DNA of 64,000 nucleotides from Escherichia coli (GCF_048403405.1 NZ_CP183129.1); one strand, 5' to 3'. Counted from the first letter of the stretch, positions 31,401-34,400 are shown. Numbers: made by a program.

Positions 31401-34400
31401 CACTGTTAACCTCTTCTGGTCTTAAAAGACAGCAACACGCCAGTAAGGTGTTGGTTCCCGGTACCCTGGTCAGGTAAGAAATGTTATAAGCCATCTCCCC
31501 GAAAGATTCAATAATCAACAGGTTATCGCTTACTATACATACAGCGTTGAAGAAAAATAAGGCAGATATAAAAAAGGCTCCACGAGGGAGCCTGATATTA
31601 TTTTGTGAAATCCAGCGGCGCATGCTCAGTGCGTATTTGCAGCGCGACGTTATCAAAGGTGATCATCGTCGATTTACAAAAAATACACTTTGCCCCTAAA
31701 GGATTTCGCTCCGTCACATCGAATGCCGATGTGCGGTACTGTGAACCATGACAACATGGACAGCGGAAATGGAGATGTTGAGTAATAACGGCAACCTTAG
31801 AGCGTAACAACGTTCGCTGCCGCGGGACCACGTTGCCCCTGCTCAATAGAAAATTCAACTTTCTGATTTTCGTTCAGCGTGCGGAATTCATTGCTCTGGA
31901 TGGCGGTGAAATGGACGAAAACGTCTTTGCTGCCATCATCAGGAGTGATAAAGCCAAAACCTTTATCTGCGTTAAACCATTTTACTAAACCAGTCATTTT
32001 ATTAGACATATTTTACTTCCTTCATTTTGGGCCTTTCGGCAAACAGGGCTTTAATACAGAAACTACTTAGTGTTCAGGAGAGAGACTCAAAAGAAGGGGA
32101 TAATGCCTGATAATGAGAACTGCTTTAGTAAACTACTTTGTATGCTGTCTGTCTTTCAAACCGACGCAGCTATTAACGCATGATAATTGAGATTAAGCAA
32201 ATTTTATTTTAGCCGTCCGGCGGTCTTAAATATCGCTGGCTTTATTTTATTAACCCCGTATAGTGCAGCGCAGTATATTCAGTAAGGAATTTGTTTGTCC
32301 CGTAAAATGACAGGAATTGTCAAAACCTTTGATCGCAAAAGCGGCAAAGGATTCATTATCCCCTCCGACGGTCGTAAAGAAGTCCAGGTCCATATTTCCG
32401 CATTCACTCCCCGCGACGCAGAAGTGCTTATACCAGGATTACGCGTGGAATTTTGCCGCGTAAATGGCCTGCGAGGACCAACAGCGGCAAATGTTTATTT
32501 GTCTTGATGGAGAGCGCACGCTGGTATGCGTGCTTCATTCACGATTTGCGTAAAACCGGCCAACGAACACATGCCCTGCGCATTTCGCTCTTCACATCCT
32601 GCCAGGGTCAGTTTCACCTCTCCGGGCGGCGTATTTAATGACAGCGGCGTTTTATCACGCATCTGCTGTAAAGTCTGGAAGACCAGCGAAACCTGAATCC
32701 ACTGGCTGTTATCGCTGAGCCGACGCCAGCGTTCAAACACCAGTTCACCCCCTGGCGGCGTGTTATCCGGCTGACCTGGAAGTGTCCAGTTGAGCTCCAG
32801 TGCGCCGCCGAGATTTGCCAGATTAGTATCGTGTCCGGCGATAAACAGCACTGAAGTGGGTAATGTCACACCATACGCCTGTTTTTGCGGTGGATGGGGC
32901 GTCAACGCTGCCATGATCAAATCCAACAACGGGGTGGCGCGGCTGCGGGCAACCTCTGGCGTGCGTTGTAGTAAATAAAATTGCGCGTTATGCAAACTTA
33001 GCAAGGTGTTCCACTGGTGTGAATCAGTGATCCTTCCCCACCCCGGCTCCGGCATTCCTTGTGCCTGTTGCAGGAGAAATATTTCCGTCAGCATTGATGC
33101 GAGGCTTACCGCACCGGTTAATGAAACATTGTCGGCGCTCACCTTGAGTTCCGATGGTAATGCCTGCGTTAATGAACAGCTTTCGTCCTGTTTCTCACGG
33201 TTAAGGCACAAGTTTGATTGCGGGAAATTAAGCACCCGTTCCAGTTCACGAAACGCCGTTTGCCGATGCCCGGTAAAGTCAGCAATTGACCCTCCTGCCC
33301 TGCTGAGGATCGCGTCAGTCACGTTCGCGTTATCCAGTTGGCAAACGCCAGTTTTTAGAGGATTAAATAACGGATCGGGACTGGAGGTATCTGCCTGGGT
33401 ATGTACGGTTATTGCACAGTCAGGTGCCAGCCCGGCGGCGAAGGCTTCGCCTGTTTTACGGGTACGCTCGTCGACATCAGCAATAATCGCGACCTGACCA
33501 GACTGCGGGCAGCCCTTTTTCGCCAGCAATCCGTCGGCTACCAGACGCTGGCGTTGGTAATGTCCGAGATAGGCGATCAGCTCACCACCGCGCGGTGTCA
33601 GCCAACCCAGTTTTACCGGCCAGGTTGGCCATGCGTCTGGGGTGACATCCTGCATCAGTTGCGTGGCCTTGGTTGGTGCACGCACACCATGACGACTGAC
33701 AATCACCACACTTTCCAGCTTCAGTTCCGGCTCACTCTGAGCGAATGTAGATTGCGGGGTTAACGGAATCAGAAGAGATAAAAATGGGATCAAGATCGCT
33801 TTCATCGATATGTTTCCGCTTTTCATATCCGACATTATGGATTGCCTGATGCGACGCTAATGCGCCGCATCAGACTTACGTTCGTTAACTTTTCAATCGC
33901 GGGTCCAGCCATACCAACACAAGGGTGGAGAGCGAACACATCAACAAAATGCCGACGAACCAAAGTAAATACCACATTGTTCCTGCTCCTTAGTACAGCT
34001 CGTTTTCGTTACGGCGGAGAGTTTCTGTCGTCATGCGTCCCCACATTTTGTAGTAGCTCCAGAGAGTGTAGAGCAACACAATGGGCAAAAATATCAGCAC
34101 GATTACCAACATAATGCTCAGCGTCAGCTGACTGGAAGTGCTGTCCCACAACGTCAGGCTGGAGATTGGACTCACGCTTGACGGCATGACAAAGGGGAAC
34201 AGCGTGATGCCTGCCGTGAAAATCACGCCAAATTGCATCAATGACGCCATCAAAAATCCCCAACCCGGGCGACCACGATAAATCGCCATCACCGTCAGCA
34301 ATGGGCAGAAGAACCCCAGCAGCGGGAAGATCCACAAAACGGGCGACTCGACAAAATTATTCATCCAGGCACCAGGTAGCACTGCCACCAGTTTCATTAA

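Follow-up and report, generated by a model that had tools for sequence, protein, structure and literature searches.

Overlapping appA and cspH genes in an Escherichia coli strain: an old empty allele of the group 4 capsule site?

INTRODUCTION

How do two genes that are separated by a capsule operon in one strain of Escherichia coli come to overlap in another? In K-12 MG1655, appA (432 aa) and cspH lie 9,048 nt apart, and the interval carries etk, etp, gfcE, gfcD, gfcC, gfcB, gfcA and IS1D. The gfcABCDE-etp-etk genes (ymcDCBA-yccZ-etp-etk) form the group 4 capsule (G4C) operon of EPEC O127:H6 E2348/69, EHEC O157 and Shigella sonnei and are disrupted by IS1 in K-12; the legend to S2 Fig of PMC4368438 places this operon between appA and cspH. 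In the E. coli sequence analyzed in this work, a stretch of 64,000 nt from NZ_CP183129.1 that is referred to below as the window, the same chromosomal site carries an alternative, empty allele, in which appA and cspH converge and share their 3' ends.

The initial annotation described the K-12 arrangement correctly (about 9 kb of gfc-etp-etk plus an IS1 between the two genes) and left two explanations side by side, namely that the lineage never carried the cluster or that an excision of the cluster also cut off the final two codons of appA. The evidence presented here favours the former for the allele in the window. We estimate at about three in four the probability that this allele is one of two old alleles of the site, generated by a microdeletion in an empty site that had never held the cluster.

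RESULTS AND DISCUSSION

The appA/cspH junction in the window

The junction comprises the following features, given in window coordinates.

cspH: 32295..32507, plus strand; TTG start, 70 aa, CspA family, ending in ...AANVYLS* (ORF list)
cspH stop codon: 32505-32507, plus strand; TGA
appA: 32495..33805, minus strand; periplasmic acid phosphatase/phytase in its 436-aa form, with the PGAP start at the internal ATG at 33805
appA as given in the ORF list: 32495..33835, minus strand; longest open frame
appA stop codon: 32495-32497, minus strand; TAA (reverse complement)
Tail-to-tail overlap of the appA and cspH coding regions: 32495..32507, both strands; 13 nt
AppA extension His-Gln-Asp-Lys and TAA: 32495..32509, minus strand; mostly antisense of the last cspH codons
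Ala-Leu codons GCT CTC: 32510..32515, minus strand; putatively spacer-derived sequence

The gene ends and the 13-nt overlap reported in the initial annotation agree with both the ORF list and the sequence, and translation confirms that the last AppA codons, giving a C-terminus of ...ACALHQDK, are read from the antisense of cspH. The His-Gln-Asp-Lys extension is missing from K-12-type AppA. Homology of the window to K-12 appA begins only at 32516, and positions 32510..32515 are the spot that corresponds to the position of gfc-etp-etk in other strains. Both frames are intact, their 3' nucleotides are shared and the arrangement is kept across relatives, as expected of an overlapping convergent gene pair. 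In GN02461, an E. coli isolate from human blood, the stretch is 100% identical to the window, and PGAP calls the two genes as overlapping, with an AppA of 436 aa. The CspH protein WP_000087763.1 is identical in GN02461, Nissle, 042, E2348/69 and O157 according to PGAP and is thus unchanged between gfc-occupied and overlapping alleles. The appA frame is also open upstream of the PGAP start (33806-33835), up to an ATG at 33835 (MSDMKSGNIS-MKAIL...) that is chosen by some gene callers and leads to 446-aa entries such as P0041.

Neither a tblastn search with the seven K-12 Gfc/Etp/Etk proteins and InsA/InsB nor a blastn search with the whole K-12 appA-cspH interval returned a match in the 64-kb window, which bears out the reported absence of the cluster and of IS1. 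The two genes leave zero intergenic DNA between them, and gfcA-E, etp and etk are missing from this position; within the window, the appA/cspH locus is thus devoid of genes for the export of a group 4 (O-antigen) capsule. IS1D is particular to K-12-type strains, as O157, E2348/69 and E. albertii possess the cluster without it, and it plays no part in the window junction. A few kb away from the gfc locus of E2348/69 (L009/L010, NC_011601.1, about 1,043,500-1,088,700), torS and torT are separated by a lambdoid prophage with nleB2, nleC and nleD.

The AppA protein and its C-terminal tail

The AppA of the window belongs to the AppA family of histidine acid phosphatases/phytases: its translation contains the RHGVRAP and HDTN motifs and matches PDB AppA chains over residues 23-432 (about 98% identity; E = 3e-278 to 7Z1J/1DKL). 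These catalytic motifs are common to the K-12 AppA phytase (PDB 1DKL, 7Z1J and others) and the protein studied here. The two differ at the C-terminus, since the K-12 protein ends in ...ACSL, whereas that of the window ends in ...ACALHQDK, corresponding to the replacement of Ser by Ala and a tail of four additional residues beyond the last cysteine, read from antisense cspH. All solved E. coli AppA structures end in ...RIPACSL, exactly the K-12 ending given in the initial annotation. The comparison of C-termini across strains that had been suggested separates a K-12 type (ACSL) from an overlap type (AC[STA]L[HY]QDK), and distant AppA homologues in unrelated genomic contexts (Kosakonia, P0061) end in C-x-L*.

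Tails found in other AppA proteins are HQER, YQDK and HQDK. A very large E. coli AppA cluster (P0033, 7,419 member sequences) ends in ...ACALHQER instead of ...HQDK, which corresponds on the opposite strand to a cspH Leu codon of CTT in place of TTG. The HQER and HQDK tails thus show that variation in the overlap region continues, within what the YLS* end of CspH allows.

Sequence variation is also seen further inside appA. The last ~600 nt of the gene (window 32495-33100; also L010, L011 and L012) show 3-5% differences between E. coli strains, and in the 3' third the two B2 strains E2348/69 and Nissle differ at 14-16 positions per 300 nt; appB/appC, located just upstream, show 0-2% differences between strains. 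The 3' third of appA is a mosaic or fast-evolving stretch beside the insertion/deletion point. In addition, a contig of 317 nt in an assembly of Nocardioides antri (L007, NZ_VUJW01000157.1) encodes AppA residues 25-129 with 100% identity to the window and almost certainly represents E. coli contamination of that assembly.

Transcript ends at the junction

A further feature lies next to the overlap.

Palindrome GCACGC-N6-GCGTGC (6 bp): 32516..32533; across the last conserved appA codons (Ala-Arg-Ile-Pro-Ala-Cys), identified by folding

The same palindrome is present in K-12, where its T-rich tail makes it terminator-like for appA; in the window the tail reads GCTCTCCATC. A scan of K-12 assigned the strong hairpin immediately downstream of appA to the etk terminator, which was brought by the insert. 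No canonical intrinsic terminator was called on either strand of the window between 32400 and 32700. In folding predictions, RNA of the appA sense that spans the junction was more stable than shuffled controls (z = -3.3), a value that refers to the fold and not to termination of transcription. Since there is no intergenic room and no canonical terminator, the appA and cspH transcripts would have to end within each other's coding sequence, judging from the arrangement of the two genes.

Frequency of the two alleles in E. coli

Among 5,426 complete genomes of E. coli, 1,678 contained a contiguous match to a 2.2-kb junction probe and 1,669 to a probe of 151 nt. Carriers include Nissle 1917 (B2), 042 (D), IAI39 and CE10, and the junctions of the latter two strains, both of phylogroup F, are identical to that of the window. 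At least 80% of the K-12 interval was present in 3,674 of the 5,426 genomes and gfcD in 3,715. The tight-junction and gfcD classes together do not exceed the total, which indicates that the locus is two-state; the appA/cspH site is empty in about 31% of the complete genomes, among them strains of B2, D and F.

These counts bear on two caveats of the initial annotation. The first was that the same overlap might occur in K-12 and most E. coli, so that the K-12 gene order given there would be wrong; the two genes are widely separated in K-12, and the overlap is found in about 31% of the genomes. The second was that the junction could be an assembly collapse or a misjoin in the contig. Apart from the unexpected adjacency itself, nothing speaks for such an artefact, and its probability is negligible: the identical 151-nt junction is contiguous in well over a thousand complete genomes from many laboratories and platforms, it is present in other species as well, and PGAP annotates the overlap.

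The overlap junction is an ordinary lineage marker: about a third of E. coli, and several sister species as well, have it as their normal allele. The distribution of the capsule genes, including the absence of G4C from most B2 strains, has been published before. Of 195 B2 strains, just 15 carried G4C genes, and most of these were LEE-positive EPEC, for example E2348/69; group 2 capsules were associated with B2, D and F, and phylogroup G was found to carry G4C (Clark & Maresso 2021, Infect Immun, PMC8281228). That distribution agrees with the present counts; it scores gene presence and absence, without the empty-site junction, the AppA tail or the ancestral state.

Some genomes with the overlap allele carry an IS element at or beside the junction. 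In L024 (NZ_OZ039848.1, 2913061-2916633), IS1 interrupts cspH and leaves a 69-aa gene plus a fragment, and appA stays at 436 aa; in H9 (NZ_CP116071.1), ISVsa5 is located between the two halves of the junction probe. Elsewhere in the window, torS (27292-30036) has a GTG start, and its full 2,745 nt can be aligned gap-free with the intact torS of 042. PGAP places a frameshift flag on torS in GN02461, E2348/69 and Nissle and flags an internal stop in that of an O157 strain; either the window differs from GN02461 at this gene or the flag reflects the annotation model.

The junction in other Escherichia lineages

The same 13-nt overlap as in Nissle and 042 was found in four non-coli lineages of species rank, namely L003 and L004 (divergent assemblies labelled "E. 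coli"), L005 (E. whittamii) and L006 (Escherichia sp. E1V33), and also in L030. The overlap allele thus occurs in at least five other Escherichia lineages, with flanks that are 8-15% diverged. The AppA proteins of L003-L006 and L030 end in AC[STA]L[HY]QDK, and the appA genes of L003-L006 are only 83-89% identical to that of K-12. The occupied state is not confined to E. coli either: E. albertii has the order cspH-gfcABCDE-etp-etk-appA (432 aa) at the same site, and gfc-etp-etk is likewise located between appA and cspH in the lineage represented by L019.

A third state was identified in the deeper relatives L020 and L021/L022, three short Logan contigs from two lineages, which share the appB-appX-appA/cspH synteny without gfc and without overlap. 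Their AppA proteins show identities of 79% (L020) and 77% (L021/L022). The junction of L020 reads ...TGC AGT TTG TAA / TGCACTCT / TTA AGA TAG ATA AAC..., with a spacer of 8 nt between the two stops, and that of L022 reads ...TGC GGC TTG TAA / CGCTCTCTTCAT / TCA GGA AAG ATA AAC..., with a spacer of 12 nt. By distance, L020-L022 are the farthest from E. coli in appB, appA and cspH, and in an AppA tree rooted on Cronobacter and Citrobacter they are basal to E. albertii, the cryptic lineages and E. coli, a position that rests on one fast-evolving gene tree and on distances. Two scans of JGI metagenome contigs for non-overlapping empty junctions yielded none further, the first returning nothing and the second two chance matches.

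L030 and L019 belong to the same lineage, as their flanks are 99.7% and 99.3% identical and 429 of 432 AppA residues match. L030 has the overlap allele and L019 the occupied one; apart from the insert, the two are distinguished by four synonymous substitutions within the final three codons of cspH, so that a second species also contains both alleles. This difference is most economically read as allele replacement by homologous recombination through the conserved flanks; under such replacement, only a few bases beside the insertion/deletion point would stay linked to the insertion or deletion itself.

The capsule insert and the case for excision

The boundaries of the insert are identical in K-12, O157, E2348/69, E. 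albertii and L019. On the appA side, occupied alleles read ...AGT TT(G/A) TA(A/G) TGCA up to the boundary, and on the cspH side the flank starts with TTAAGA(G/A)AGATAAACATT. The identity of the gfc genes to those of K-12 is 80-94% in E. albertii, 84-94% in L019 and 96-99% in E2348/69, a divergence about equal to that of the flanking appB. Shared boundaries, together with a gfc divergence in step with the flanks, suggest that both states are old and that the insertion happened once. The insert has a size of 8.2-8.3 kb and a GC content of 0.50, compared to 0.52 for the window, and neither an integrase nor terminal direct or inverted repeats of at least 10 nt were detected in it. The gfc block of other strains accordingly lacks the hallmarks of a horizontally acquired genomic island, and divergence that tracks the flanks points to an old insertion instead of a recent island. 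A recent import of gfc into the B2 EPEC strain E2348/69 from A/B1/E strains was considered, but none is evident, its gfc genes being about 1-3.6% diverged from K-12/O157, like the rest of the region. GfcC matches at 74-79% identity (P0016, P0024) came from frameshift-ridden E. coli-like assemblies and were uninformative.

In a rival reading, the window would descend from a K-12-like ancestor, from which a block of ~8.3-9 kb was removed by an illegitimate or IS1-mediated deletion that fused a clipped appA to antisense cspH. In line with such a scenario, 68% of E. coli as well as E. albertii have the cluster at precisely this position, and its divergence at the species level makes the occupied state an old one; the occupied allele also retains the ancestral C-x-L* end of AppA. 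Direct repeats of 2 to 3 nt also bracket the insert (the 3-nt ATA in L019, TA in E. coli); L030 reads exactly up to the ATA repeat and differs from its 99.7% identical sister L019 by essentially nothing other than the insert and the four synonymous cspH changes. However, joining of the insert boundaries results in ...AGTTTGTA / TTAAGAGAG... (AppA ...SLY*) and not in the TGC GCTCTC CAT CAA GAC AAA TAA of the window, and the 17-nt junction sequence has no match with up to 3 mismatches in the K-12 interval. These two observations argue against the window-type allele being an excision product. A simple gfc excision scar would combine the boundaries TAATGCA and TTAAGAGAGATAA, but the window has GCTCTCCATCAAGACAAATAA; GCTCTC and the TGA stop of cspH match the gfc-free relatives and neither insert boundary. 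The IS1 copy or end that an IS1-mediated adjacent deletion would retain at one endpoint is missing from the window, as is any IS scar, and IS1D is absent from the occupied alleles of O157, E2348/69 and E. albertii. Finally, the same junction in at least six lineages with diverged flanks would place the deletion before their split. Excision is thus improbable for the window, although a microhomology-mediated deletion is possible for the second overlap sub-type described below. Of the clipping proposed in the initial annotation, the loss of the last two K-12-type appA codons and of the stop stands, and its attribution to the removal of ~9 kb is unsupported; a microdeletion of 12-13 nt would account for it.

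Origin of the overlap

The gfc-free relatives permit comparison of the three states. GCTCTC at 32510..32515 of the window has its counterparts in the spacers of L022 (GCTCTC, within 12 nt) and L020 (ACTCT, within 8 nt), and the window sequence TGC-GCTCTC-CAT-CAAGAC... aligns with TGC[GGCTTGTAAC]GCTCTC[TT]CAT[T]CAGGAA... of L022, where the bracketed nucleotides are those missing from the window. The window allele hence equals an L022/L020-like site minus 9-13 nt. The occupied allele, in turn, equals an L020-like site with the gfc block in the spacer, in which TAATGCA on the left and TTAAGA.AGATAA on the right are kept. Because L020-L022 are gfc-free without overlap and basal in the AppA tree, and because distant AppA proteins end in C-x-L*, the ancestral site appears to have been gfc-free with two separate stop codons.

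The reverse polarity was also considered, in which the 13-nt overlap is the original Escherichia state, the gfc insertion created an earlier appA stop and rewrote the end of cspH, and the sites of L020-L022 are secondary. The overlap is indeed the most widespread state among the sampled named non-coli Escherichia lineages (L003-L006), no E. fergusonii being among the AppA homologues listed. This polarity is nevertheless unlikely, as L020 shares TAATGCA and TTAAGA.AGATAA with the occupied alleles and therefore looks like a pre-insertion site in which the stop was already there, distant AppA proteins end in C-x-L*, and L020 and L021 are basal in the rooted AppA tree. An ancestral overlap combined with truncation of AppA by the gfc insertion was dropped given the occupied site of E. 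albertii and the gfc-free, non-overlapping deeper relatives.

Under the preferred reading, that of a microdeletion in an empty site, the ancestral Escherichia-type locus would have consisted of a convergent appA (...Cys-Ser/Gly-Leu-stop) and cspH with 8-12 nt between their stops and no capsule genes. The occupied allele (K-12, O157, E2348/69, E. albertii) would have arisen by insertion into this spacer of the 8.2-8.3 kb gfcABCDE-etp-etk block with its own promoter region and terminator. In the overlap allele, a loss of 12-13 nt would have taken the last two codons and the stop codon of appA together with part of the spacer. Without its stop, the appA frame would stay open as far as a TAA that lies four codons inside the antisense of cspH, adding two spacer-derived codons (Ala-Leu in the window) and four antisense cspH codons (His-Gln-Asp-Lys). 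Within species, both alleles may then have moved between strains by homologous recombination in the conserved flanking sequences. If the window carries the microdeletion allele, its haplotype never held the cluster.

As to the cause of the loss, slippage between short direct repeats is most likely, as far as present-day sequences can tell. Two copies of ATGCA, 12 nt apart, flank the final two codons and the stop of appA in L020, and deletion of one repeat unit generates the reading ...IPACTL..., as found in L003; L022 lacks the repeat. The case resembles slipped-strand microdeletions between short direct repeats that remove a stop and create a convergent overlap, in that the 12-nt ATGCA-bounded unit of L020 is the part missing from the window-type allele, but the exact ancestor is lacking, and a second overlap sub-type is not explained by the ATGCA repeat. 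The window, Nissle, 042, L003 and L006 have the sub-type NCT CTC, and L004, L005 and L030 have AGT TTA, which preserves the original Ser-Leu codons. The two differ at 5 of 6 bases, which suggests more than one microdeletion or another event; the microhomology-mediated deletion mentioned above concerns the AGT TTA sub-type and not that of the window.

A broader interpretation can be offered tentatively, namely that the appA/cspH site is a long-lived cross-species dimorphism between G4C-occupied and overlapping-empty alleles that is kept by selection on capsule type. It builds on the presence of both alleles in E. coli and in the L019/L030 lineage and on bases beside the insertion/deletion point that differ consistently between the alleles across species. 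There would then be no series of lineage-specific gains and losses, and selection might favour, for example, G4C in lineages of the intestine but group 2/3 capsules in B2/D/F, a scenario that we regard as doubtful.

CONCLUSIONS

Nothing in this work overturns current understanding, and its additions are modest: the K-12 state at this site is an inserted one, the overlap and the AppA tail are attributed to a microdeletion of 12-13 nt and not to a 9-kb loss, and both alleles occur in more than one species. For annotators, an AppA of 436 aa that overlaps cspH is genuine and reflects neither a frameshift nor a misassembly, and the junction is a clean marker for the B2/D/F-type allele. A strain with the window allele cannot make a group 4 (O-antigen) capsule through the appA/cspH locus. 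More generally, the K-12 reference arrangement would be the derived state at appA/cspH, a slip of 12-13 nt can give rise to a stable overlap between two genes and to a new tail on a protein, and several related species can remain polymorphic for the presence of a capsule-export operon.
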